Origin: an uncultured virus (IMG/VR IMGVR_UViG_3300045119_000323)
Lineage: Duplodnaviria; Heunggongvirae; Uroviricota; Caudoviricetes
Strand: one strand, 5' to 3'
IMG/VR virus record: IMGVR_UViG_3300045119_000323
Length of the DNA stretch: 20,000 bases
The translations under genes were made by a program, and so were the position numbers. Positions 2,645-17,900 of this stretch are shown piece by piece; the first letter of the stretch is position 1, and each line of letters opens with the position of its first letter. Below the pieces are notes generated by a model. The model was not told where the DNA came from. It ran no database searches and saw only the letters and a list, made by a program, of their open reading frames with translations.

Positions 2645-2659
2645 AATGTGATTCGGCTG

Positions 2660-2688
2660 TTGACCCTGCGTCCTGAGTCGTTCATAAC
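2660..2688 (+). promoter_or_regulatory. Rightward sigma70-type promoter TTGACC-N17-CATAAC for the amidoligase-GGCT-polA operon
   Basis: -35 at 2660-2665, -10 at 2683-2688, followed by a leader with AAAGAGG RBS. Confidence 0.7.
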
Positions 2689-2731
2689 GATCTCACGGCC
2701 GCCGGCCGCCAACCCAAAGAGGTTCCGCAGA

Positions 2732-3994
2732 ATGACTGTGCTTCGCAAATTCGGTGTCGAGATGGAGTGCTTCCACCCGACGCATTCCTCGTCCACCAGC
2801 CACCGCAACCTGCCGGTCGCAATCCGCGCCATGGGCTTCCAGTCGGTCGGTGCCAACTACAGCGGACGCGACTACGACGTCTGGCAGGTCAAGCCCGATG
2901 GCTCGCTACGTCGTTCTGCGCGCGACGACGACGGCGGCATCGAGATCGTCGCCCCGACGCTGCCGGCCACGCAGGCCTCGTTCGACCAGATCACCAAGGT
3001 CGCCAACTACCTCGGCGCGAACGGCTACGACGTCAACGTCTACTGCGGCATGCACATCCACATCGACGCCGCCGACCTCACGCTGCAGGAAGCCTCGGCC
3101 GTGGCGCTGCGCTACCACCACTGCCAGTCGCAGATCGACGAGATCATGGCGCGCAGCCGGCGCGGCGGAACGTGGTCGAACCGCCTCGACAGCGGCGCAC
3201 TGCGCAAGGTCGTCGAGGCGGTGACCGCCAGCAACGCCCGCGTCGTGTGGGGCCACCACGAGCGTCGCGTCGCCGTCAACCTTGAGCACGTCCACAAGGG
3301 CCGCCCCGACAAGCGCATCGAATTCCGCCAGCATCAGGGGACGCTGAACGCCGCCAAGATTCTCGGCTGGTACAAGTTCCTCTGCGGCTTCGTTGCCGAG
3401 ACCGTCCGCCTCGTGCGGCAGGGCGGCAACCTCGCCCAGCCGACCGCAGTCGTGCCGGTTCCGCACGCTGTTCCCGCCCTCGTGCGCCGCCAGCGCACCC
3501 GTCGCGGCACCACCCGCTCGGTGGTGGTCGGAACGACTCCACCGACCATCCCGCAGATCGACGTCGGCACCGACTACGACCTGTTCCTCAACCGCATGGC
3601 CAACGAGGGCGTGGTCACCCAGCAGGATGCGCGCAGCTTCGGCTGGCCGGAGACCCGCCTGCGCGTCACCGCCCACTGGCTGCGCCGCCATGGTGCCGAG
3701 CTGATCACGACGCAGCGCAACGGCGAGTTGGCCTATGTCGGCGGCAACGGCGCGCGCACCCGCGCGGAAATCTTCGCCAACCCGGCGCAGATTCGCCAGC
3801 GCATCGAGGCCGCCCCGCTGGCGTCGGCCACGTTCTCGACCATCGCGGCGACTGCGCCGCAGCGCGCCGCCGGCCGCGATCTGGCCGACCTGCTGACGCG
3901 CACCAATGCGCTCGACGGTCTCGATGACGAGACCAAGGCGTGGTTCAACATCCGCCGCTCTGAGATCGCAGCGGCCTCCGCAGGGAGGCCGTAA
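2732..3994 (+). CDS. Amidoligase (Amidoligase_2 / COOH-NH2 ligase, glutamine synthetase/glutamate-cysteine ligase fold) with a probable winged-helix insertion, 420 aa
   Basis: Motifs FGVEME, WQVKPDGSL, GIEIVAP, CGMHIHID, RIEFRQHQGTLN; start reassigned to ATG 2732 (RBS AAAGAGG). Confidence 0.9.
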   Translation: MTVLRKFGVEMECFHPTHSSSTSHRNLPVAIRAMGFQSVGANYSGRDYDVWQVKPDGSLRRSARDDDGGIEIVAPTLPATQASFDQITKVANYLGANGYDVNVYCGMHIHIDAADLTLQEASAVALRYHHCQSQIDEIMARSRRGGTWSNRLDSGALRKVVEAVTASNARVVWGHHERRVAVNLEHVHKGRPDKRIEFRQHQGTLNAAKILGWYKFLCGFVAETVRLVRQGGNLAQPTAVVPVPHAVPALVRRQRTRRGTTRSVVVGTTPPTIPQIDVGTDYDLFLNRMANEGVVTQQDARSFGWPETRLRVTAHWLRRHGAELITTQRNGELAYVGGNGARTRAEIFANPAQIRQRIEAAPLASATFSTIAATAPQRAAGRDLADLLTRTNALDGLDDETKAWFNIRRSEIAAASAGRP

Positions 3995-4851
3995 TGCCCG
4001 ACGCAGTCCCCATGACCGTCCTCAAGGTCAGTCATCACAACGCGCAGCACATCGCGACGCGCTACCCCTACGCCGCCTACGGATCGAACCTGATGATGGC
4101 GCAGATCAACGAGCGCTGCCCGCGCGTCGAGCTGGTCACCGCCGGCTCGCTGATTGGCCACCGCCTCGACTTCGCGAAAGTCGCGACGATCACGGCCGAC
4201 AGGGAGTCGTCGGTCCCGGTCGGCATCTACGCGCTGAACGCCACCGACATCGAACGCCTCGACAAGAAAGAGGGCATGGGCCGCGTCTATGACCGCTTTC
4301 TCGTGACGCCGATCACCGACGACAACCGGGCGCTGCGCTGCTTCACCTACATCAAGCGCGACCACGTTCTGGAGCCGCCGACGCCGGAGTATTTCGGCAA
4401 GCTGCTGCACGGCTATCGCGACTGGCACTTCGACGACCGCCGGCTGCGCCGGGCGCGCGAGCGCGCCGTCGAGGCGTGGGATGCGGCGGCTCCGGCGCGC
4501 GCCGCCGCCGACCGGATGCTGCACAAGATGGGCTTCCGGCATGGCGACAAGTCGGGCGTGCGCTGGCAGTCGGCCGGTGAGGCGTGGCGGCAGGGCGACA
4601 TGTGGGAGCCCGAGGGCAGCAACGTCGTGCCGCTGCACCACGCAGCCAAGCGCTACGTCACGCTGCGCCACGATCAGGTTGAATGGGGCCAGCGCGGCGA
4701 GGATTTCTACTTCCGCCAGAAGGGCACGCGCGTGTGGTACAAAGACGTCTCCGGCCACGAGCATGTCAGCGCCGGCATGGTGTGCGGCGAGCTGGCGACC
4801 AACCTGCCGGGGGCGGGAGCCTACAAACCCATCGAGAAGGGCAAGGGCTGA
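3994..4851 (+). CDS. Gamma-glutamylcyclotransferase (AIG2-like) with a C-terminal extension of unknown function
   Basis: YAAYGSNL...RCP, LDKKEG (catalytic Glu), PTPEYFGKLLHGY motifs; TAATG coupling to the amidoligase. Confidence 0.88.
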   Translation: MPDAVPMTVLKVSHHNAQHIATRYPYAAYGSNLMMAQINERCPRVELVTAGSLIGHRLDFAKVATITADRESSVPVGIYALNATDIERLDKKEGMGRVYDRFLVTPITDDNRALRCFTYIKRDHVLEPPTPEYFGKLLHGYRDWHFDDRRLRRARERAVEAWDAAAPARAAADRMLHKMGFRHGDKSGVRWQSAGEAWRQGDMWEPEGSNVVPLHHAAKRYVTLRHDQVEWGQRGEDFYFRQKGTRVWYKDVSGHEHVSAGMVCGELATNLPGAGAYKPIEKGKG

Positions 4852-6809
4852 TGGTCCGCCGCATCGACGACTCGCGACAGGACGAGCTGGGGCTGATCGA
4901 GGTGCCACGCACCTTCCATGCCCCGGCCGACTGGGTGCCGCCGTCGTTCATGCCGGAGCTGTCGGGCATGGTGGCGCTCGACGTCGAGACCAAGGACCCC
5001 GGCATCAGCGAGGGCCGGGGATCATGCTGGCCGCTGGCAGGGCAGGGCTTCGTCTGCGGCGTCGCACTGTGTTCGCGCGACTTCAAGGTCTACTATCCGC
5101 TGGCCCACGCTGCCGGCAACATCGTGCATTCGCACATCGTCTTCTGGTGCTGGTTGCGCGAGCAGGCGGCCAAGCCTGACGTCACCTTCGTCATGGCCAA
5201 CGCGGCCTACGACACCGGCTGGCTCAAGCGCCACGGAATCGTTCTCGCCAATCCACCGCGCGATGTGCAGGTCATGGCTTTCCTGCTCGACGAGCATCGC
5301 AAGAGCTACGCCCTGTCGGCGCTGGCGCGGGACAATCTTGGCCGTGACAAGCAGACCCTGCTGCTGGTCGACATGGCGCGCGCGCTGCATATCGCCAATC
5401 CGATGGCGAACATGGACAAGCTGCCGGCGTGGATCGTGTCGCCCTACGCGGTCGAAGACGCCGTGCTGACCTACGATCTCTATCACAAGCTGTTGCCCAA
5501 GCTGGAAGCCGAGGAGCTGGGACGTGCCTTCGATCTCGAATCACAATGCACGCTGGTCACGGTCGACATGCGCTGGGAGGGCGTGCGGATTGATTCGACA
5601 CTGCTCGAAGGCACCGGATTGCTGTTCGATAACTGCTGCGAACGTGCGCTCAAGACGGTTCGGGACATTACCGGCGTCCACATGCAGCCGTTCGAGAACG
5701 ACTCGGCCATGAAGGCGCTCAAGATCGAGAACAGCGGCGTCGTCTTCGGCACCACCGCGACCGGGCGCGACAGCGTCGCCAAGGCGGTCCTGCAGGGCAT
5801 CGGCTCGCCCGTCGCCAAGGCGATCCTCGAAGCCCGCATGTACGACAAGTACAAGTCGACCTTCGTCGACAGCATGCAGAATTTCATCCATCGCGGCCGG
5901 GTCCACGCCGAATTCCATTCAACGCGAAATTCTTCCTCGAACGACGAGTACCTCGACGACGACTCGGTGTTCGGTGCGAGCAGCGGACGCTTCGCCTCGT
6001 CGCATCCCAACTTGCAGAACATTCCGGTGCGGACCGAGGAGGGCCGCATGATCAGGGATTGCTTCATTCCCGATGACCGCGACAGCATGTGGGCCAAGCT
6101 TGACTATGCTTCGCAGGAGCCGCGCCTGACCGTTCACTTCGCCAACCTTGCGAGGATCAGCGGCCGGCCGCTGCGCGGCGCGGCCGACATGGTCGCGCGC
6201 TTCAACGCCAATCCCCTGCTCGACCTGCACGGTGAGACGGCGCTGCTGATGGGCGTGCCGCGCCAGCACGCCAAGGTGATCAACCTCGCGCTGGCCTACG
6301 GCATGCAGGGCGCGTCGCTCTGCCGCTCGCTCGGCCTGTCGACCAAGTGGATCACGTCGCGCCGAACCGGCCAGCTCGTCGAGGTGGCCGGCGACGAAGG
6401 CCAACGACTCATCAACAAGCACAGCGCGGAGGTGCCCTTCATCAAGGGCATCTTCGATCTGGCCAAGGAGACCGCGCAGTCGCGCGGCTACGTCAAGACC
6501 ATCATCGGCCAGCGCATCCGCTTCGAGCGCTACGGCGACGGCAACTACGCGCGTGTCCACAAGGCGCTCAACGGCGTCATTCAGGGTTCTGCCGGCAACC
6601 AGATGAAGATGGCGCTGGTCGCGCTCAGACGTGAAGGCCTGCCGAGCAACCTGACGGTGCACGACGAAGCCAACAAGTCGGTGCCCAAGGGCGAGGCGGG
6701 CGAGCGCATGATCGACCGCATGGTCGAGATCATGGAAGATGTCCTGCCGCTCGCCGTTCCCGTCATCGCCGAAGCCAAGACCGGATCGTCGTGGGGCGCT
6801 TGCCGTTGA
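4851..6809 (+). CDS. polA: Phage family A DNA polymerase (3'-5' exonuclease plus polymerase, no 5'-3' exonuclease), 652 aa
   Basis: ExoI LDVET, ExoII NAAYD, ExoIII YAVED; GRFASSHPNLQNIP; motif A DYASQEPR; motif B RQHAKVINLALAYG; motif C VHDE; start ATG 4851 in a TGATG overlap. Confidence 0.97.
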   Translation: MVRRIDDSRQDELGLIEVPRTFHAPADWVPPSFMPELSGMVALDVETKDPGISEGRGSCWPLAGQGFVCGVALCSRDFKVYYPLAHAAGNIVHSHIVFWCWLREQAAKPDVTFVMANAAYDTGWLKRHGIVLANPPRDVQVMAFLLDEHRKSYALSALARDNLGRDKQTLLLVDMARALHIANPMANMDKLPAWIVSPYAVEDAVLTYDLYHKLLPKLEAEELGRAFDLESQCTLVTVDMRWEGVRIDSTLLEGTGLLFDNCCERALKTVRDITGVHMQPFENDSAMKALKIENSGVVFGTTATGRDSVAKAVLQGIGSPVAKAILEARMYDKYKSTFVDSMQNFIHRGRVHAEFHSTRNSSSNDEYLDDDSVFGASSGRFASSHPNLQNIPVRTEEGRMIRDCFIPDDRDSMWAKLDYASQEPRLTVHFANLARISGRPLRGAADMVARFNANPLLDLHGETALLMGVPRQHAKVINLALAYGMQGASLCRSLGLSTKWITSRRTGQLVEVAGDEGQRLINKHSAEVPFIKGIFDLAKETAQSRGYVKTIIGQRIRFERYGDGNYARVHKALNGVIQGSAGNQMKMALVALRREGLPSNLTVHDEANKSVPKGEAGERMIDRMVEIMEDVLPLAVPVIAEAKTGSSWGACR

Positions 6810-8151: not shown

Positions 8152-8390
8152 TGCCCCTCACCCTGTCGTTCACCGACATCGAGGTCCGCGTCCTGCGACG
8201 CGGCCTCAAGCGGCTGACCTACGAGGTCAAGAGCAACATCCGGCGCAACGAGCGCGCCGGGTGGACGCCCGAGCCGGGCAAGCTGGACGTGGCGCGCGAA
8301 ATGCTGGGGACCATCGATTCGCTGCTTGACCGGCTGCCCTTCCCTGACTATCCTGACGATATCGAACCGCCCAAGGAGGCAGAGCAATGA
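8151..8390 (+). CDS. Hypothetical protein, 79 aa (MPLTLSFTDIEVRVLRRGLK...)
   Basis: TGATG coupling upstream and ATGA coupling downstream; 3' part of ORF 7524..8390. Confidence 0.75.
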   Translation: MPLTLSFTDIEVRVLRRGLKRLTYEVKSNIRRNERAGWTPEPGKLDVAREMLGTIDSLLDRLPFPDYPDDIEPPKEAEQ

Positions 8391-10123
8391 TTACTTTCGA
8401 CGTCAATCAGGCCACCATCGAAGTCATCGGGGGCCTGCTCATAGAGCGCCTCGATATTTCGGCCGCCGTGCCGGAGACCATCGATGGCGGCGGTATCCGG
8501 GCCAGCCACGCCAACATTAGCTGGCTGCTCGATCATTACCCCGAAGCGCTGTGGATCGACCGCCACAGCCGCCTGATGGAGGTCCGCGCGGCACGCGAGA
8601 TCGCCGCGCAGGCCCGACCAACGGCCGGCGACTACGAGCGCAACTGGCCGTTCAAGATGCAGCCGCTGCCGTTCCAGATCGACATCTTCGCCGCCGCCCG
8701 GCTGATGACCGAATTCGCGCTTGCCCCGGTCGCCACCGGCACCGGCAAGACCAAGATGACGCTCGACATCATGGCCGACAAGTTCATGCGCGACGAGATC
8801 GACTGCGTCTGCATCATCGCCCCCAACGGCGTCCAGCGGCAGTGGATCAGGCGCGCCATCCCCGATCATATGACGGCCGCCATCCGCGTCCGCGCCGACG
8901 TATGGAAGCCCAACATCAAGAGCCCGCTGCCCAAGGCGGTGACCGAACCCAATTTCGACGGCACCCGCGCGCTGCGCATCGCCGCCTTCAACGTCGAGGC
9001 GTTCTCGGCCGAATCCGGCAAGGCCTTCATGGCCGCACGCGCTTTCATGGCGTCGGGCCGCTGCATGCTGGTGATCGACGAGTCGTCGCGCATCAAGTCG
9101 TTCAAGGCGATCCGCACCAAGACCATCAGCAAGCTCCGCCAGTACTCCAAGGTCCGCTGCAACCTCTCCGGCACGCCCATCACCAAGGGCCTCGAAGACC
9201 TGTTCACGCAGTACGCCATGCTCAACCCGAACATCCTCGGCCTGACCAACTATTACGCCTTCCGCAACCGCTACTGCATCACCGCGCCGATCCCCGGCGC
9301 ACCGAGCGGCGCGGTCAAGATCACCGGCTACCGCAACGTGGCGGAATTCGTCCGCATGATCGCCCCGGTGACCTTCGTCGTGCCGAAGAGCGTGCTGGGC
9401 CTGCCCGAGAAGACCTACGAGCAGCGCGAGGTCGAGATGACCCCCGAGCAGAAGCGGCTCTACAAGGCCCTCGTAAACGACCTTGTGGCCGATCTGCGGG
9501 CCCGCCGGGTGGAGACCCCCGCCAACGCCGCCGTGCGTCTGGTGAGGCTCCAGCAGGCGCTGTGCGGCCATCAGGTCGAGGTCGAGGAAGGGGTCGATCA
9601 GTACGGTGATGACGTCAGAATCCTGAGCAGCGTACCGATCCCCAGCCGACGACTCGAAGTGCTGTACGACACGCTGGTCGAGCACGACGGCCCGGCGGTG
9701 ATCTGGGCGCGCTTCACCAGCGACATCGAGGATATCGCCTCGTTCCTGCGCGAGCAGGATCACAAGGTCGCGACCTACTACGGCAATACCAGCCCGGCCG
9801 ACCGCGACGAGGCGGTACGCGCCTTCAAGGCCGGCGAGATCGACTACTTCGTCGCCAATCCTGACGCCGCCGGCACCGGGCTGGACGGCCTGCAGGTGGC
9901 CCAGCTCGCGGTCTATTACTCCAACAGCTTCCGCGCCGAGTCGCGCTGGCAGTCCGAGGATCGCCTGCACCGCCTCGGCATGGCCGGAAGCTGCCACATC
10001 GTCGATCTGGTTGTGCCGGCCAGCGTCGACACGTTAGTCTTGAAAAATCTGCAGGATAAGTCCAGCATAGCCCGCGCCGTCTTCGAGAACCCCTCGGTTC
10101 TCGAAGACATGGAGGAGGATTGA
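8387..10123 (+). CDS. SNF2-family (SF2) helicase/ATPase
   Basis: Walker A ATGTGKT, motif II VIDESS, motif III SGTP, motif VI QSEDRLHRLG; AAGGAGG RBS. Confidence 0.95.
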   Translation: MITFDVNQATIEVIGGLLIERLDISAAVPETIDGGGIRASHANISWLLDHYPEALWIDRHSRLMEVRAAREIAAQARPTAGDYERNWPFKMQPLPFQIDIFAAARLMTEFALAPVATGTGKTKMTLDIMADKFMRDEIDCVCIIAPNGVQRQWIRRAIPDHMTAAIRVRADVWKPNIKSPLPKAVTEPNFDGTRALRIAAFNVEAFSAESGKAFMAARAFMASGRCMLVIDESSRIKSFKAIRTKTISKLRQYSKVRCNLSGTPITKGLEDLFTQYAMLNPNILGLTNYYAFRNRYCITAPIPGAPSGAVKITGYRNVAEFVRMIAPVTFVVPKSVLGLPEKTYEQREVEMTPEQKRLYKALVNDLVADLRARRVETPANAAVRLVRLQQALCGHQVEVEEGVDQYGDDVRILSSVPIPSRRLEVLYDTLVEHDGPAVIWARFTSDIEDIASFLREQDHKVATYYGNTSPADRDEAVRAFKAGEIDYFVANPDAAGTGLDGLQVAQLAVYYSNSFRAESRWQSEDRLHRLGMAGSCHIVDLVVPASVDTLVLKNLQDKSSIARAVFENPSVLEDMEED

Positions 10124-12084: not shown

Positions 12085-12113
12085 TTGCTTTATTTTGGTC
12101 TCCCGGCTATCCT
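12085..12113 (+). promoter_or_regulatory. Promoter TTGCTT-N17-TATCCT; leaderless start of GGCT2; -10 overlapped by ATCCTGTCGAT
   Basis: ATG 12121 lies 7 nt after the -10; no SD; back-to-back with the leftward promoter. Confidence 0.65.
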
Positions 12114-12120
12114 GTCGATT

Positions 12121-12582
12121 ATGAAAACACATACGCATCTCGTCCTCGTCTACGGCACCTTGATGAAGGATAACCCCAACAACCACGTCATCGTTGGCCG
12201 CAAGGGCAGCGACGCGGTTCTGCTGGGCGAGGCCTACACTCTGCAGAAATTCTTCATGTCGGGCGGCGGCTTCCCGCGCGTGTCGCGCAAGGTCCTGCGT
12301 GACTTCCCGGCCAGCGTCAAGGCCAGCGACTACTGTTCGCAGGTCTCCGGCGAGCTGTGGCGGGTCAACGACGAGTCGTTGACCAACTGCGACCGCCTCG
12401 AAGGCCATCCGACCTTTTACCGCCGCGAGCAGGTCCCGGTCGTGATGAAGACCAGCCGGGCGCGCCATCTGGCGTGGATGTATATCATCACCGAGCCGCC
12501 CGAGGCGCTGCAGTGCCTGCCCAAGAACAAGGCAGGCGTGCTGCGCTGGGAATCGCCATGGAAGGAGTCGCGCGATGCCTGA
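12121..12582 (+). CDS. Gamma-glutamylcyclotransferase, GGACT/YtfP-like, 153 aa
   Basis: VLVYGTLMK, VSGELWRV, CDRLEGHPTFYRR, AWMY motifs; start ATG 12121. Confidence 0.9.
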   Translation: MKTHTHLVLVYGTLMKDNPNNHVIVGRKGSDAVLLGEAYTLQKFFMSGGGFPRVSRKVLRDFPASVKASDYCSQVSGELWRVNDESLTNCDRLEGHPTFYRREQVPVVMKTSRARHLAWMYIITEPPEALQCLPKNKAGVLRWESPWKESRDA

Positions 12583-13306: not shown

Positions 13307-14581
13307 TCATGGCGTTACTTCTTGAATGGTCATGCTGGAACACATGACGAAGCCGAACGTGGTGCCGGAATTGAACGACGTGGTCCCGGCAGCGCCGCCG
13401 CCCGCCCGGACCCTGAAGGTCGTCGCCGCTGTCGAGCCGCTGACCATAATGTACTTGAACTTGATGTTCACCGTTGCGTTAGCGGCAGTCACGGTCGCGG
13501 CGGCAGCGGTCAGGGCACTGGCCGTTGAATCCTTGAACAGCGCCACGCCCATATTGTTGACCGCGCTGTTGCTGCCGATCCACACAACGTCAACGATCAG
13601 CAGCGACGTGGCACTGGTCGGCGTAACCGCCAACGTCATGTACTCGTCACCCTCGGTGATCTGCGGGATGGTGGTGTCGAAGGGAATGAGCGTCGTGCCG
13701 GTCGCGCCTGTGCCGGTGCGGTTGTAGACAGTTTGCAGCAGCTTGCCGCTGCTCCCGCCGCCGCTGATGTTGGCCCGCACCCACGCCGTCGTCGGCACCG
13801 TCGTGTCGTTGCTGCCTGCCGCAATCGCCGTGCTCAACGTCGCCGTCGTGCCGCTGAGCGGCGCAGCGATGTTCACAACAGAGCCACTAATCGTCAGCGG
13901 CTGGTACGACCCGACACCCGTATTGTCGACACCTTCAATAGCAGTGTAAGCCGCATTTGGAACAATGCGAACGCCTTTGGTCGCACCGGCAAACAACCCG
14001 CCAATAATGCTGTCGTTGGTCGTCACCTTCAACGCGCCGTTAACACCGCCACCATTGAACGTCGCCGTCGTGCCGGTGAGCGTGCCAGCGAACGTCGCCG
14101 TATTGGCTTGCACGTCGAGCCAGCGGTTCGACGGCCCGCCGAGCCTCAGACCGAGATCGACGGACGGTATCAGGTAGCCACTGAGATGCTGCAACGTGGC
14201 AACGCCGTTGACGCGCCAGACGTAATTGAAGCCGGTCGGCACGTTGGCGTAGAGATTGCCGTCGCCCGTTCCGCCGCCAATGAAGCCGATGGACCCGGCT
14301 TCGGTGGTGACGCCGTTGAGCGAGATCATGTTGTAGTGGAAGTTGGACGTGTCGCCGGTGAGCTTAAGAGCGGTGTCCGCCCCCGTGTTGAACGTCGCCG
14401 TCGTGCCGGTGAGCGTCCCCGGTCCAGCGAGCGTGCCGCCCGTCAGCGGCAGATAAGGTCCCACGCCCGGCGCGGCGCTCTGCGCCAGCCACGACGAGTA
14501 GGTCGCGTTGTACTGGTAGGCGACGCCGTTCGGGGCGTTGAACACCTGACCGTCGGTTGGCGAGGCGGGGAAGTCGATCAC
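13307..14581 (-). CDS. Tail fibre / receptor-binding protein 2, 424 aa
   Basis: True start GTG 14581 (GTGA overlap, GAGG RBS); IDFPASPTDGQ N-terminus, YLPLTGGTL, LTGTTATF repeats, G/T/S/N-rich, beta-rich C-terminal head. Confidence 0.85.
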   Translation of the reverse strand: MIDFPASPTDGQVFNAPNGVAYQYNATYSSWLAQSAAPGVGPYLPLTGGTLAGPGTLTGTTATFNTGADTALKLTGDTSNFHYNMISLNGVTTEAGSIGFIGGGTGDGNLYANVPTGFNYVWRVNGVATLQHLSGYLIPSVDLGLRLGGPSNRWLDVQANTATFAGTLTGTTATFNGGGVNGALKVTTNDSIIGGLFAGATKGVRIVPNAAYTAIEGVDNTGVGSYQPLTISGSVVNIAAPLSGTTATLSTAIAAGSNDTTVPTTAWVRANISGGGSSGKLLQTVYNRTGTGATGTTLIPFDTTIPQITEGDEYMTLAVTPTSATSLLIVDVVWIGSNSAVNNMGVALFKDSTASALTAAAATVTAANATVNIKFKYIMVSGSTAATTFRVRAGGGAAGTTSFNSGTTFGFVMCSSMTIQEVTP

Positions 14582-16340
14582 GGCGCGACCTCGCGGATGA
14601 CGATGCTGCTGGCCGCGACGCCACCGAACAGGCCGTTGAAGCTCACTGACGCCGCCGCACTGGGACCGGCCCGCAGGCGAAACGTGATGGGGCTCGTCCC
14701 ACCGCTCGTCATCGTGTGGGTGAAGGTCAGGGCTTGGTATGTATTGGCGGTCGGGATGAAAGCCACCGAAGCAGCAAGGGCTGCGGCCACGGCATCGCGG
14801 AACAGCGCGGCAGAGACATCGTAGCCGCTGGTGTTGCACGACAGTATGGCGTTCACGGTGATGATCAGGTTCGACGTGGCGAGCTTGGGCGTGATCGCCA
14901 GCGTCATGAACTGCGTGCCCTCGCTGATCTGCGGAATGGTGTTGTCGTCGGGCATGATCGTGGTGCCGGTCGCCGGCGCGCCGGTCTCGACGCTCACCAT
15001 CTGGATTTGCGCGCCGGGGGCGATGACGGTGCCTACAGCAGTAAATCCGCCTGATATGGCAAGGTTGCCCGCGTCCGACATCGAGAACGGCACTGCGCTG
15101 TAGCCGCTGTTGATGATCTGGAAGTTGCCGCCGTTGACGCGAATGAATTTGGACGGGGTGGTCGCTCCGTCGCCCGTCAGCTTGATGGCGACGCCGTTTG
15201 CTCCCGGATTGCTGACGGCAAATGTATTCTGTGTTGAATTATTCTCGCTGAACGTCGCATTCGTGCCGGTGAGCGGTGCCGACACCTGCACAGCCGCAGT
15301 CGGGCCAATCGTTATCATTGGCGTCGTCTGCAAATTGAGAGCCATCGTGCCAGACGCACGATCAATGGTTATGGGGGTTCCTAGAACCGCACCGCCATCG
15401 GCTTGCGAATAGAAAAAGAAATTGCTGCCAGCATTTCCACCTGTCTCGGGATCAGCCGTGGCTCTTATTCCCCAGCGTGTGGTGCCCGCAGTCTGGAGCT
15501 TAAGTGTTCTATTCGTACCTGCTGCGCCGGAAGTATTTATATCTCCGTTGAACAGCGCCGACGTGCCGGTGAGCGGGCCGGTGAGCGTTCCCCCCGCGAG
15601 CGGCAGATACGATCCGGCCATCGTCGGCGTCGCGGGCACCCACTGCGAGGAATTGCCGTCGTTGTAGTAGACCATCAGCGTGCCCAGCACGCTGTTCCAC
15701 CACATCGCCCCGGCGGTCGGTGAACCCGGTGGCGTGTCGCTGATGGTGAGCGACGCACCGCCGCCGCCACCACCCATCACTGCCCACGTCGTCGCGCCGT
15801 CAGTGTTGACGTAGGGGCCGCCGCCATCGCTGCGCAGGTAGAGCGTGCCACGCGCTTGGCTGGCAGTAGGCACACCAGAACCGAAGGTGATGCCGAAGTT
15901 GCTGGTAGTGGACAGGTAGACGCCACCTGCTCCCACGCCGCCTGCGGGCACTGCCGTCGTGTTTCTTGCGAAAACATTGCCCGCAAAAAAACCACCGCCG
16001 CTGAACGTCGCCGTCGTGCCGGTGAGCGCGCCAGTCGATGAGATGCTGACCCCGAGTGTACCCGCGCTGTTACGAAAATTGTGCGTGTCGAAGTCGCTGT
16101 AGCGAGTTGGGATCGCTACTGCATTTTCAAGCAAATACTGCCCCGTGTAGTTCACGACGCGGTCAACCCGCCTCCCACCGGTGTCCTGCCGAAAGATCGT
16201 CGCCGCCGTCGCTCCCGTGCTGACGTTTTGAAAATAGAGAAATTCGTTGCTATTGACGTTGTCCTGCACATGGAGACGTGCAGCCGGTGCACCGCCAACA
16301 CCAACGTTGCTACTGAACGTCGCCGTCGTGCCGGTGAGCG
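13836..16340. repeat. Dispersed 27-bp direct repeat TGAACGTCGCCGTCGTGCCGGTGAGCG (encodes LTGTTATF on the - strand), 7 copies across both fibre genes
   Basis: Identical copies at 14056-14082, 14389-14415, 16002-16028 and 16314-16340; variants at 13836-13860, 15249-15275 (2 mismatches) and 15549-15575 (3 mismatches); partial copy at 14090-14101. Confidence 0.92.
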
Positions 16341-16839
16341 GTCCAGTCAGCGTACCGCCGACGAGAGGCAGGTACAGCCCGGCCGCCCCGGTGCCCGTCA
16401 GGTAACCCTGATCGTTGACCCACTTCGTGGTCGCCGCCAGCGTCGAGCTGTCGGCCGGCGGGATCGTGCCGCCGATGTTCAGCAGGTTGGCGACGTGAAG
16501 GTTGCCGGGGTGGTCGAACGACGCCAGCAGCGCACGCGACGACTCATCGCCGTTGGTGCCGACCAGAGAGATGTTGCCGGGGCCGGTCGAATAGAGCCCC
16601 GGTGTCTTGGAGTTGTCTGCCGTGAACTGCAGCGACGGGTTATAGAAATCACCGCCGGGCAGCTTGATGACGTCGAACGTGATCAGCGGGTTGAGCAGTA
16701 TCGCGTCGATCAGCGTCGGCCCGGTGTTGAACACCAGCGCACCGAATCCGGTCGTCGGATAGGGCGCACCCTTCTGGTCGCAAAGCTGCATCGGGGTGCC
16801 GCCCGACGAGACGATGGTGATCGGCTGGATCGGGATCAC
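14578..16839 (-). CDS. Tail fibre / receptor-binding protein 1, 753 aa
   Basis: GTG start overlapping the GH73 stop; YLPLxGGTLTGPL x2, VGVGGAPAARLHV, SDTPPGSPTAGAMWW motifs; C-terminal head paralogous to fibre 2. Confidence 0.9.
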   Translation of the reverse strand: MIPIQPITIVSSGGTPMQLCDQKGAPYPTTGFGALVFNTGPTLIDAILLNPLITFDVIKLPGGDFYNPSLQFTADNSKTPGLYSTGPGNISLVGTNGDESSRALLASFDHPGNLHVANLLNIGGTIPPADSSTLAATTKWVNDQGYLTGTGAAGLYLPLVGGTLTGPLTGTTATFSSNVGVGGAPAARLHVQDNVNSNEFLYFQNVSTGATAATIFRQDTGGRRVDRVVNYTGQYLLENAVAIPTRYSDFDTHNFRNSAGTLGVSISSTGALTGTTATFSGGGFFAGNVFARNTTAVPAGGVGAGGVYLSTTSNFGITFGSGVPTASQARGTLYLRSDGGGPYVNTDGATTWAVMGGGGGGASLTISDTPPGSPTAGAMWWNSVLGTLMVYYNDGNSSQWVPATPTMAGSYLPLAGGTLTGPLTGTSALFNGDINTSGAAGTNRTLKLQTAGTTRWGIRATADPETGGNAGSNFFFYSQADGGAVLGTPITIDRASGTMALNLQTTPMITIGPTAAVQVSAPLTGTNATFSENNSTQNTFAVSNPGANGVAIKLTGDGATTPSKFIRVNGGNFQIINSGYSAVPFSMSDAGNLAISGGFTAVGTVIAPGAQIQMVSVETGAPATGTTIMPDDNTIPQISEGTQFMTLAITPKLATSNLIITVNAILSCNTSGYDVSAALFRDAVAAALAASVAFIPTANTYQALTFTHTMTSGGTSPITFRLRAGPSAAASVSFNGLFGGVAASSIVIREVAP

Positions 16840-17900
16840 TTGTAATTCCTCGAATACGCCAGAAGGTCGCGGATCGCGCCGCCGCGTGCGCGTGTGTCGG
16901 GTTCAGGCTCCGGCGCGGGAGGCGGAGCATTGCCGGCGTTCAGTTGCGCCAGAACTTCCGGTGGCAACGACTCGATGGTCTTGACCAGCTTGGGAAGATA
17001 GCTGGTATCGGTCGCGTATCCCGACTTGCCGAGCGCGATGAGCTGCTCCGGATAGCTCTTGGCGGCGACGACTCCGGGGAACTTGCTCTTCAGCGTCTCG
17101 CCGTAGTGCTGGAAGCTCTCCTGCGGGGTCTGGTACGTCCTGAACTTGGCCTGCGTCGGTACCAGCTTGCCGTCGACCATCTCCTTGGTCGCCAAGGTCT
17201 GGCCGGGCTCGTTGGGCCCCGCCTTGACGCCGAAGTAGTTGTAGCCCGGTGCCGCCGTGCCCCACGCGCTCTCGTGCGCCGCCTGTGCGAGGACGATGCG
17301 CGGATCGATGCCGGTCTGCTTGCTGACCTCCAGCGCGTAGGGCACCGCCATCTTGAGGAAGGCCTGCCGCCGCACCGGGTCGGCGTTGGGGTTAGGCTCG
17401 CCCGTGTCGGGGCCCTGCGTCGGTGTCATCGCCGGCTTGGGTGTCGCGCCCGGTGCGCCCGGTGCCGGAGGAGTCGTCGGCGCGGTCGCCGCCTGCGCGC
17501 GCAGCTTCTCCACGGCGATGCGGGCGATGCGCTCGGCTTCGGTTTCCTTCTCCTTGTCCTTCGCCTTGTCGGCGACGTAGTCCTTGAACTTGAACATGTC
17601 CTCGTCGGCCGCGCTGCCCTTCAGGATCGGGGACGGCTGCAGGTCGAACCTGAGCGGCGAGACCGGTTGGCGTTGCGCGGCACCGCCGGACGAGTCGTCG
17701 GCTCCGAGGCCGGGCGCAATTCCCGACGTCGACTTGCCGACGTAATTCGGGTCGAGCGCGGCGGCCCGCAGCTTGGCCACCGGGTCGAGCATCTTGGCCC
17801 GCATGTCGCCCATGCCTTCGGGCACCGGCAGGGCTCCTGCCCCGGCCCCGGTCGCCTGCGCGAGGTAGGCCCGTACCAGCTCGGAGGGATCGTAGGCCAT
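16836..17900 (-). CDS. Virion-associated peptidoglycan hydrolase, GH73 glucosaminidase (FlgJ-like) domain with a low-complexity N-terminus
   Basis: LAQAAHESAWG (catalytic Glu), NYFGVKA, TKE, FRTY, GYATD motifs; lies between the ejection-like gene and the fibres. Confidence 0.9.
   Translation of the reverse strand: MAYDPSELVRAYLAQATGAGAGALPVPEGMGDMRAKMLDPVAKLRAAALDPNYVGKSTSGIAPGLGADDSSGGAAQRQPVSPLRFDLQPSPILKGSAADEDMFKFKDYVADKAKDKEKETEAERIARIAVEKLRAQAATAPTTPPAPGAPGATPKPAMTPTQGPDTGEPNPNADPVRRQAFLKMAVPYALEVSKQTGIDPRIVLAQAAHESAWGTAAPGYNYFGVKAGPNEPGQTLATKEMVDGKLVPTQAKFRTYQTPQESFQHYGETLKSKFPGVVAAKSYPEQLIALGKSGYATDTSYLPKLVKTIESLPPEVLAQLNAGNAPPPAPEPEPDTRARGGAIRDLLAYSRNYK

Follow-up and report, generated by a model that had tools for sequence, protein, structure and literature searches.

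A short in-phase DNA joint between modules of two adjacent tail-fibre genes in a soil phage recurs at breakpoints among its relatives

A repeated joint in two adjacent fibre genes

Two adjacent tail-fibre genes of an uncultured soil phage (IMG/VR record IMGVR_UViG_3300045119_000323) carry seven copies of a 27-nucleotide (nt) sequence, here called the joint, that divides the encoded proteins into segments. The window, meaning the whole stretch of DNA analysed, represents 20 kb (20,000 nt) of a 68,072-bp contig, and gene searches cover that 20 kb; the runs holding its DNA are soil and rhizosphere metagenomes. Both fibre genes lie on the minus strand, with the stop codon of fibre gene 1 overlapping the start codon of fibre gene 2 (GTGA), and they were matched to the generic tail-fibre families phrog_30299, phrog_9729 and phrog_3304 of PHROG, the first two being those of fibre 1. 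No match to the gp37 or gp38 protein families was found in the fibre genes with Pfam and PHROGs. A total of 144 database relatives were identified for fibre 2.

A pattern search with up to three mismatches identified seven matches to the 27-mer on the plus strand of the window (Table 1), four of them exact and the remaining three with two, two and three mismatches, and 200 dinucleotide shuffles gave no match. The initial annotation, which had described seven direct, in-phase copies in two adjacent fibre genes with four of them nucleotide-identical, is borne out by this search, and its spacings of 312, 453 and 300 nt in fibre 1 and 333 and 222 nt in fibre 2 are correct; the first copy, placed at 13836, actually starts at 13834. 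All seven copies share one codon phase in the fibre genes, where the joint reads CTC ACC GGC ACG ACG GCG ACG TTC (the 24-nt string, encoding LTGTTATF) and the common bases also include the last two of the preceding codon and the first one of the next. The joint peptide is (P/A/T)LTGTTATF(S/N) or a variant differing by one or two residues, and the three variant copies (LTGTSALF, LTGTNATF and LSGTTATL) contain only amino-acid-changing substitutions. A 12-nt partial copy (ACG GCG ACG TTC, encoding TATF) is located at 14090-14101, 8 nt upstream of joint m6, and one of the contig junctions described below (14098>15549) falls inside it.

Table 1. Positions within the window of the fibre genes, their modules and joints, and other genes (GC3, GC content at third codon positions; aa, amino acids; L, related locus; P, database protein; HSP, high-scoring segment pair)
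Feature	Coordinates	Strand	GC3	Description
Fibre gene 1	14578-16839	-	0.76	753 aa, GTG start; N1, joint, A, joint, B, joint, C, joint, D, tip T1
Module N1	16342..16839	-	0.87	aa 1-166, N-terminal anchor, ends YLPLVGGTLTG
Joint m1	16314..16340	-		exact 27-mer, P-LTGTTATF-S
Module A	16030..16314	-	0.66	aa 176-270
Joint m2	16002..16028	-		exact 27-mer, A-LTGTTATF-S; contig junctions 15996/15997 and 16032 in other runs
Module B	15577..16002	-	0.78	aa 280-421, ends in "collar" SDTPPGSP..MWWNS..YLPLAGGTLTG
Joint m3	15549..15575	-		3 mismatches, LTGTSALF; switch point against L001 and L009
Module C	15277..15549	-	0.53	aa 431-521, trimeric beta-helix type shaft module; absent from L001/L004
Joint m4	15249..15275	-		2 mismatches, LTGTNATF; L001/L004 homology restarts at 15276
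Module D	15010..15249	-	0.81 (D+T1)	aa 531-610; 96% identical in P0004, 84% in P0006
Tip T1	14581..15009	-	0.81 (D+T1)	aa 611-753, Pgp3 C-terminal-like
Fibre gene 2	13307-14581	-	0.81	424 aa, GTG start; N2, joint, E, joint, F, joint, G, tip T2
Module N2	14417..14581	-	0.89	aa 1-55, resembles collar at end of module B (41% over 51 aa)
Joint m5	14389..14415	-		exact 27-mer, T-LTGTTATF-N; L001 HSP end at 14388
Module E	14084..14389	-	0.86	aa 65-166; absent from L001/L004 fibre 2; 94-100% identical in P0078, P0081
Joint m6	14056..14082	-		exact 27-mer, T-LTGTTATF-N; 99% L001/L009 block begins at 14086/14082
Module F	13862..14056	-	0.64	aa 176-240 and preceding residue, 66 aa; most mobile module
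Joint m7	13834..13860	-		2 mismatches, LSGTTATL; contig junctions 13835>14058, 15033>13839
Module G and tip T2	13310..13834	-	0.83 (G+T2)	G, aa 250-276, ends TTVPTTAWVRAN; T2, aa 277-424
Glucosaminidase-domain protein	16836-17900	-
SNF2-type helicase	8387-10123			Pfam/PHROG
Family A DNA polymerase	4683-6809			Pfam/PHROG
Amidoligase	2648-3994			Pfam/PHROG

Both proteins were divided at the joints into the segments N1, A, B, C, D and T1 and N2, E, F, G and T2. The segments had initially been described as mutually unrelated, which is mostly the case; the exceptions are a YLPLxGGTLxGP tail shared by N1, B and N2, the collar common to B and N2, a weak similarity between D and E (E-value 7e-4), and the two tips, which are 46.5% identical. 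The start of fibre 2 (14417-14581; DFPASPTDGQVF...W...YLPLTGGTLAGP) matches the collar of module B, midway along fibre 1 (15577-15730), at 41% over 51 aa. The opening of fibre 2 therefore resembles an interior stretch of fibre 1.

Module C (aa 430-517) matches residues 54-140 of Bd3182, from its trimeric beta-helix fibre segment, in the structure 8ojn of the PDB with an E-value of 7.6e-9 (3.6e-10 with a shorter query), the alignment ending just past the joint, and no PDB match was found for the other modules and fibre 2. The fibre 1 tip reaches 21.6 bits against PF05475 (Pgp3 C-terminal), which is under the 25-bit cut-off; the related locus L003 reaches 29.3 bits and several database relatives carry precomputed PF05475 assignments. 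None of 28 additional loci related through the tip domain only (L019-L046) carries the joint, so that joint and tip do not travel together. Module F and the modules of L003 (4558-5025, minus strand), which are unrelated to it in sequence, all consist of 66 aa and measure 222 nt from joint to joint, which hints at a size constraint on such shaft modules.

Codon identity at the joint and composition of the modules

Given the peptide, the probability of the string is 0.0018 under the codon usage of ten non-fibre genes and 0.0035 under that of the fibre genes themselves, copies included, and five out of eight positions are occupied by second-choice codons. Pairwise comparison of the seven copies gave 139 identical codon pairs, no synonymous differences and 29 amino-acid differences, compared with 15 identical pairs, 16 synonymous and 5 amino-acid differences for the three copies of the adjoining upstream YLPLxGGTLxGP motif (Fisher P 2.7e-14). 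The suspected synonymous identity in excess of codon preference is thus real, and codon bias does not explain the identity of the string. Among 29 non-redundant sites from the window and related phages, the joint is always eight codons long and in phase. The codon preceding it (position -1) is NCG at 26 out of 29 sites even though it may encode P, A or T, and the codons at positions -2, +1 and +2 vary freely, with serine at +1 encoded by both AGY and TCN. A codon lock with such sharp edges next to diverged flanking codons is a poor fit to a simple recent duplication and fits homogenisation confined to the string.

Two clades of soil phages share most of the string. In the clade of the window, 14 out of 15 non-redundant copies consist of CTC followed by 21 fixed bases, and a second soil-phage clade with quite different, small fibres carries CTG followed by the same 21 bases in 14 out of 14 copies, two to three times per gene and between other modules. 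One copy in L003 has the version of the other clade. AT-rich phages display no strong codon lock and little excess identity (observed/expected 2.0). A codon lock in AT-rich and mid-GC phages was considered and rejected as weak or unsupported (observed/expected 2.0; 1 out of 372 pairs identical), and codon locking is found only in the high-GC soil clades.

The peptide has a far wider distribution. A degenerate scan of IMG/VR for any DNA encoding LTGTTATF identified at least 125 stretches with at least 138 sites. Among the matches listed, LTGTTATF, usually as G-(A/G/S/P)-LTGTTATF-(S/T)-G, is located in long fibre-like open reading frames (ORFs) of phages with a GC content of 0.30-0.68, and its codons track the GC content; LTGTTATF is a widespread protein-level feature of fibres. 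The exact 24-mer was found four times in a 596-Gb genome collection and four times in a metagenome collection, as chance hits in unrelated proteins or non-coding frames that pointed to no host and never in fibres, and none of 185,579 species genomes contained a prophage copy. No mention of LTGTTATF was found in the literature collection searched. Two AT-rich contigs, L064 (67-441) and L153 (300-990), contain tandem arrays of 33-45-aa units with LTGTTATF or FTGTTATF, so that the peptide is also part of a simple tandem repeat.

Composition varies between the modules. GC3 is 0.84-0.94 in the non-fibre genes and lower in both fibre genes, with large differences between individual segments (Table 1). 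Likelihood segmentation placed changepoints in fibre 1 at codons 157, 373, 431 and 547, to be compared with module borders at codons 175, 279, 430 and 530; the strongest changepoint, at 431, lies one codon from the border at 430. The two changepoints in fibre 2 (191 and 222) both fall within module F. The tract of low GC3 around joint m4 continues through the joint, which forms an island of the standard string. An abrupt switch to A/T-ending codons had been noted after most copies: this is seen after all four fibre 1 copies (GC3 0.35-0.50 over the next 20 codons) and weakly after one of the three in fibre 2 (0.70), and not after the other two (0.90). The expected GC3 step is accordingly present as one sharp step (431 against 430) and not at every joint. 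Overall, the GC3 data back a role of the joints as junctions only partly.

The low-GC3 modules suggest imports from lower-GC phages. The DNA of the linker differs in such phages, and the first import therefore cannot have used this exact string. Across 39 non-redundant joint sites, GC3 was 0.86 in the five codons before the joint, 0.65-0.69 in the 15 codons after it and about 0.75 elsewhere in the fibre genes; this set includes five non-fibre chance sites. The dip after the joint was set aside as support, being modest (0.66-0.69 against about 0.75) and drawn from a set with chance sites in it.

Module borders in relatives and in other soil assemblies

The exact 27-mer is present in six IMG/VR contigs, and blastn blocks shared between the relatives and the window begin or end at copies of the joint. 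Relatives L001 and L004 match the window at 15801-15546 (91% and 88%) and then from 15276 on (84%), and thus contain a single joint in place of joint m3, the 300-nt module C and joint m4 of the window. Their fibre 2 matches 14628-14388 (89%) and then 14086-13769 (99% and 96.5%), with module E missing. In L009 the fibre 1 collar (15801-15545, 87.5%) is joined, from the first base of the joint, to the fibre 2 module F (14082-13883, 99%). Ungapped three-way alignments place the switch inside or beside the 24-mer: the upstream flank in L001 is identical to the m3 flank at 56 out of 60 positions and to the m4 flank at 26 out of 60, and its downstream flank is identical to them at 15 out of 60 and 51 out of 60 positions, respectively. 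Overall, 10 out of 33 internal HSP ends are located 6 nt or less from a copy, compared with 7.7% expected (binomial P 1.3e-4; HSPs of at least 100 nt, with the near-duplicate L004 and one contig end left out).

Contigs of four runs (X1-X4, X1 being the probable source run) from four studies were compared with the same region, and 15 contig junctions are listed, with three more in existence. Among the junctions listed, 16 out of 30 ends are at most 6 nt away from a copy (7.7% expected, P 7.6e-11), and this applies to both ends in 4 out of 15. One junction from run X4 (13835>14058) represents the exact loss of the 222 nt of module F, with 18 letters assignable to either side, and another from the same run (15276>15546) skips module C; in run X3, module F is joined to the fibre 1 collar (14068>15562) with 14 ambiguous letters. 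Junctions accumulate at joint m3 (15545, 15546, 15549, 15556 and 15562) and at joint m6 (14058, 14068 and 14098). The initial annotation had predicted relatives that are non-collinear and break at the repeat, and both counts agree with this. None of the findings that would have spoken against a junction was made: the relatives are not collinear with the window, codon preference does not account for the string and a GC3 step does occur at a joint.

Database proteins add further arrangements. P0002 and P0003 carry N1 at 99% and then other modules past the joint, and module B is 72-82% identical in P0002, P0003, P0004 and P0006, within differing contexts. P0004 consists of B (72%), a joint, F (98%), LSGTTATF, D (96%) and T1 (96%), with the fibre 2 module F at the position that module C occupies in fibre 1 of the window. 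P0078 corresponds to fibre 2 without module F, and P0079, P0030, P0080, P0084 and P0081 carry F at 97-100% after different modules, two of them with a different tip. Counting L001 and L004, module F (66 aa, 97-100% aa identity) is found in seven upstream and four downstream contexts, and its DNA is 99% identical in L001 and L009; its spread into many different fibre architectures, among phages with differing neighbour genes, is recent. Hybrid joints in the relatives (LSGTTATF and LAGTTATL) begin like one of the window copies and end like a different one, which indicates crossovers inside the string. In-frame insertion and deletion, replacement, and exchange between the two genes, all of which had been proposed for the repeat, are thus seen in relatives. 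A tblastn search of 14 non-fibre window proteins against seven related loci gave no matches, and the fibres are therefore common to phages with different genes around them.

All relatives are metagenome contigs and X1 contigs break at several joints, and the mosaics might accordingly be artefacts of metagenome assembly, with wrong joins made at the repeat. This explanation is hardly credible, given that the 27-nt repeat is shorter than both the 31-letter index words and the reads, that every chimera retains long open frames and that the three key junctions each recur in independent assemblies: the loss of C in L001, L004 and X4, the collar-F junction in L009/P0004 and X3, and the loss of F in P0078 (five contigs) and X4.

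Other conserved stretches also act as borders, as three contig junctions that meet at the start of the tip domain (15031-15033) show. At the other end of fibre 2, the homology with L001 ends at 13769 and a contig junction lies at 13794, both at the TTVPTTAWVRAN stretch, beyond which L001 and L004 have a different C-terminal domain. Borders of this kind are expected if the peptide is only a structural linker, rare illegitimate joining takes place near domain borders, selection keeps those chimeras that are joined through a linker, and the DNA identity reflects recent spread. The presence of the peptide in fibre-like ORFs at a GC content of 0.30-0.68, with codons that follow GC, also agrees with such a scenario, as do the low-GC3 modules, which imply donors with different linker DNA. 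However, rare illegitimate joining would not lead one to expect a joint of constantly eight codons, in phase at all 29 non-redundant sites, nor crossovers that fall within the string, as 14-18 ambiguous letters and the hybrid motifs show, and recency is a misfit to zero synonymous changes next to diverged flanks with both serine families at +1. We therefore consider a purely structural origin of the borders rather unlikely.

Mechanism, genomic setting and known systems

A scan of 29 window ORFs detected no family of invertases, integrases, reverse transcriptases or annealing proteins. The records of five relatives, two of them complete, were searched for recombinase families: RecT, Resolvase and RVT_1 were each absent from all five, an ERF family member was present in one (a complete relative that encodes an Erf-type annealing protein) and a tyrosine integrase in one, about 14 kb from the fibre gene. 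These results bear on programmed switching within one phage population by shufflon-like inversion, a diversity-generating retroelement (DGR) or silent cassettes, which the many direct repeats in host-recognition genes and the occurrence of variant joins together in single soil samples might suggest. Gin/Cin/Min shufflons need inverted crossover sites and an invertase, and DGRs need a reverse transcriptase and a template repeat. All seven copies are direct, with no inverted copy in 20 kb, and no long template/variable repeat pair was found, the only fibre repeat family being the 27-nt joint with weaker flanks of up to 71 nt. Furthermore, all copies lie inside two expressed-looking ORFs, no silent cassettes were found in the 20 kb, neither invertase nor reverse transcriptase was detected in the window or the five records, and the variant joins come from phages with different neighbouring genes. 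Programmed switching is consequently very improbable, and the earlier statement that the repeat represents neither a shufflon nor a DGR holds.

A second possibility is that the string is selected as DNA, either as a recombination hot spot of the host or as the target of a phage nuclease or recombinase. The sharp-edged lock, which extends into the -1 codon to cover its final two bases irrespective of the amino acid, and the presence of the same 21 nt in the otherwise different fibres of the second clade would both be expected of such a signal. No enzyme family of this kind was found in the window, however, or, in the case of Resolvase, RVT_1 and RecT, in the five relatives' records, and no signal is needed to account for the lock, which concerted evolution through crossovers within the string explains; selection for a DNA signal appears quite improbable.

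The reading that we favour, with a probability of about 0.72, is general homologous recombination at a codon-frozen structural linker. The position of LTGTTATF between modules and its breadth of occurrence suggest that it may be a short linker between one shaft module and the next in trimeric tail fibres. The peptide would be kept by protein-level selection, because it recurs in fibre-like genes at every GC content. In this group of high-GC soil phages its codons are frozen as well, so that every module boundary has the same in-phase DNA. General homologous recombination, carried out by host RecA or by a phage single-strand-annealing protein, would then cross over inside the string between co-infecting phages, with prophages, or between copies within one genome. 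Each crossover would leave the frame intact and insert, delete or replace a whole module or move it between fibre genes. Repeated crossovers within the string would keep its copies alike (concerted evolution), with the flanking modules staying unrelated. The repeats, their common phase, the codon lock and the breakpoints of relatives at the string are observations; the enzyme, how often exchange takes place, what the peptide does in the structure and any influence on host range are what we infer. As the peptide is a widespread fibre motif, protein constraint and DNA-level exchange are best seen as acting together, and evidence of this evolutionary kind, drawn from comparing genomes, does not demonstrate a programmed "system".

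Several points weigh against recombination at the joint. The 27 nt are near the lower limit for efficient homologous recombination. Only one GC3 changepoint is close to a joint (431 against 430), the others being 17-18 codons away or within modules, and the likely donors of the low-GC3 modules encode the peptide differently, so that the first acquisition took place without this string. The codon lock is weak in AT-rich phages (observed/expected 2.0). The peptide is conserved in fibres across a GC content of 0.30-0.68, and selection for working chimeras could alone place the junctions. A substantial part of the borders lies elsewhere: 23 out of 33 HSP ends are away from copies, mostly in the tip domains, as are 14 out of 30 ends of the contig junctions listed, and other hot spots are found at 15031-15033 (the tip start, APGAQIQMVS), at 13769-13794 (TTAWVRAN) and at the YLPL motif. 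Repeat-to-repeat deletions were not seen in the X1 contigs, which drop rare variants, and the window's own A-m2-B and F-m7-G joins are unbridged by the X1 pieces listed; X1 leaves some of the region without coverage or bridging, which counts neither way. Finally, the assignment of the joints as junctions rests on the comparison of assemblies, and no recombination event was seen directly.

A further, unlikely extension of homologous recombination at the linker is that the codon-frozen string acts as a shared "adaptor" for an entire gene pool of lytic as well as temperate high-GC soil phages, kept identical by selection for exchangeability or by a recombination factor. If so, any fibre module flanked by the string could splice in frame into any other fibre gene, and the string would constitute a natural standard connector for host-recognition parts, beyond a passive by-product of a conserved peptide.

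The fibre genes form part of a row of four consecutive minus-strand genes on the right side of the window, which encode a 683-aa protein that weakly matches tape-measure proteins, a glucosaminidase-domain protein, fibre 1 and fibre 2. No related viral locus was found with the glucosaminidase gene as query. Replication and modification functions were identified in the left part of the window by Pfam and PHROG searches, including two gamma-glutamyl-cyclotransferase-like proteins. The amidoligase and the two gamma-glutamyl-cyclotransferase-like genes (2648-4851, 12085-12582) adjoin the genes of the DNA polymerase and the SNF2 helicase, and such enzyme sets occur in the clusters for base hypermodification of phage DNA. 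Two genes at 294-1630 match families of cyanophage Pam3, gp34-like (PF23977, E-value 3.8e-46) and gp33-like (PF23984, E-value 1.1e-15). Among named phages, the polymerase is closest to those of PaMx11/Ab18-like Pseudomonas siphophages, with which it shares only about 37% identity. A blastn search of 50,697 phage records gave no match to the window, tblastn matches to named phages were confined to short motifs or modules (29-60% identity), and a protein atlas gave only unnamed viral clusters and a lead to PF26696. Rfam and transfer RNA scans of the window had no matches, no promoter-like sites were found in it, and terminator-like sites were at chance level.

Tail fibres decide which bacteria a phage attacks, and for their diversification in soil the locus represents an unusually clean natural record, in which a frozen eight-codon linker stands beside a freely drifted motif and at least three kinds of event (loss, replacement, and transfer between paralogous genes) are mapped to a few bases. 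Linker and module together form a testable unit for the homology needs of phage recombination and for whether evolvability shapes codon choice.

Recombination at short conserved motifs of fibre genes has precedents. Tetart, Desplats and Krisch reportedly described it in 1998 (J Mol Biol 282:543) for the His boxes of T-even gp37 and the glycine-rich motifs of gp38. Shufflons and DGRs likewise diversify host-recognition proteins by means of repeated sequences, and their required parts were not found in this locus. For T-even gp37 and gp38, conserved motifs have been proposed as recombination hot spots for module shuffling, according to the part of the source available (PMC12032242). The likeness to the present fibres lies in short conserved motifs between variable segments and in breakpoints of relatives that fall on the motifs. 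The T-even proteins belong to another protein family, whereas a single eight-residue linker is present here in seven copies across two genes; in gp38 the motifs separate adhesin loops, and here the linker separates whole shaft modules of 66-143 aa with fully frozen codons. Phage Rad52-like recombinases, the Erf type included, recombine short and diverged homologies, as stated in the accessible portion of De Paepe et al. 2014 (PMC3945230). Short homologies and traces at the borders of exchanged fragments are shared with the present case, and one relative encodes an Erf-family protein. That work, in the same portion, concerns lambdoid phages and prophages of Escherichia coli and stretches of homology tens to hundreds of bases long, compared with 24-27 nt within genes and no recombinase found in the window here. 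In the mosaic adhesive trimer (MAT) fibres of Bdellovibrio bacteriovorus, a chimeric family, the trimeric beta-helix segment of Bd3182 has been likened to the L-shaped fibre of T5 and to the K1F stalk, as given in the available part of Caulton et al. 2024 (PMC10769870). These fibres resemble the present ones in being chimeric with interchangeable modules, and module C matches Bd3182 itself (8ojn). They are bacterial surface fibres, many with an S74 chaperone domain in the sections available, and S74 was not found here; a repeated joint at the DNA level, present here, is not described in those sections. The principle is thus already known, and the idea of motif recombination from the T-even phages is extended to an unrelated fibre family and another habitat without a new principle. 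What is new is the linker itself, the internal control for codon locking, the transfer of modules between paralogous fibre genes and the breadth of contexts in which module F is found.

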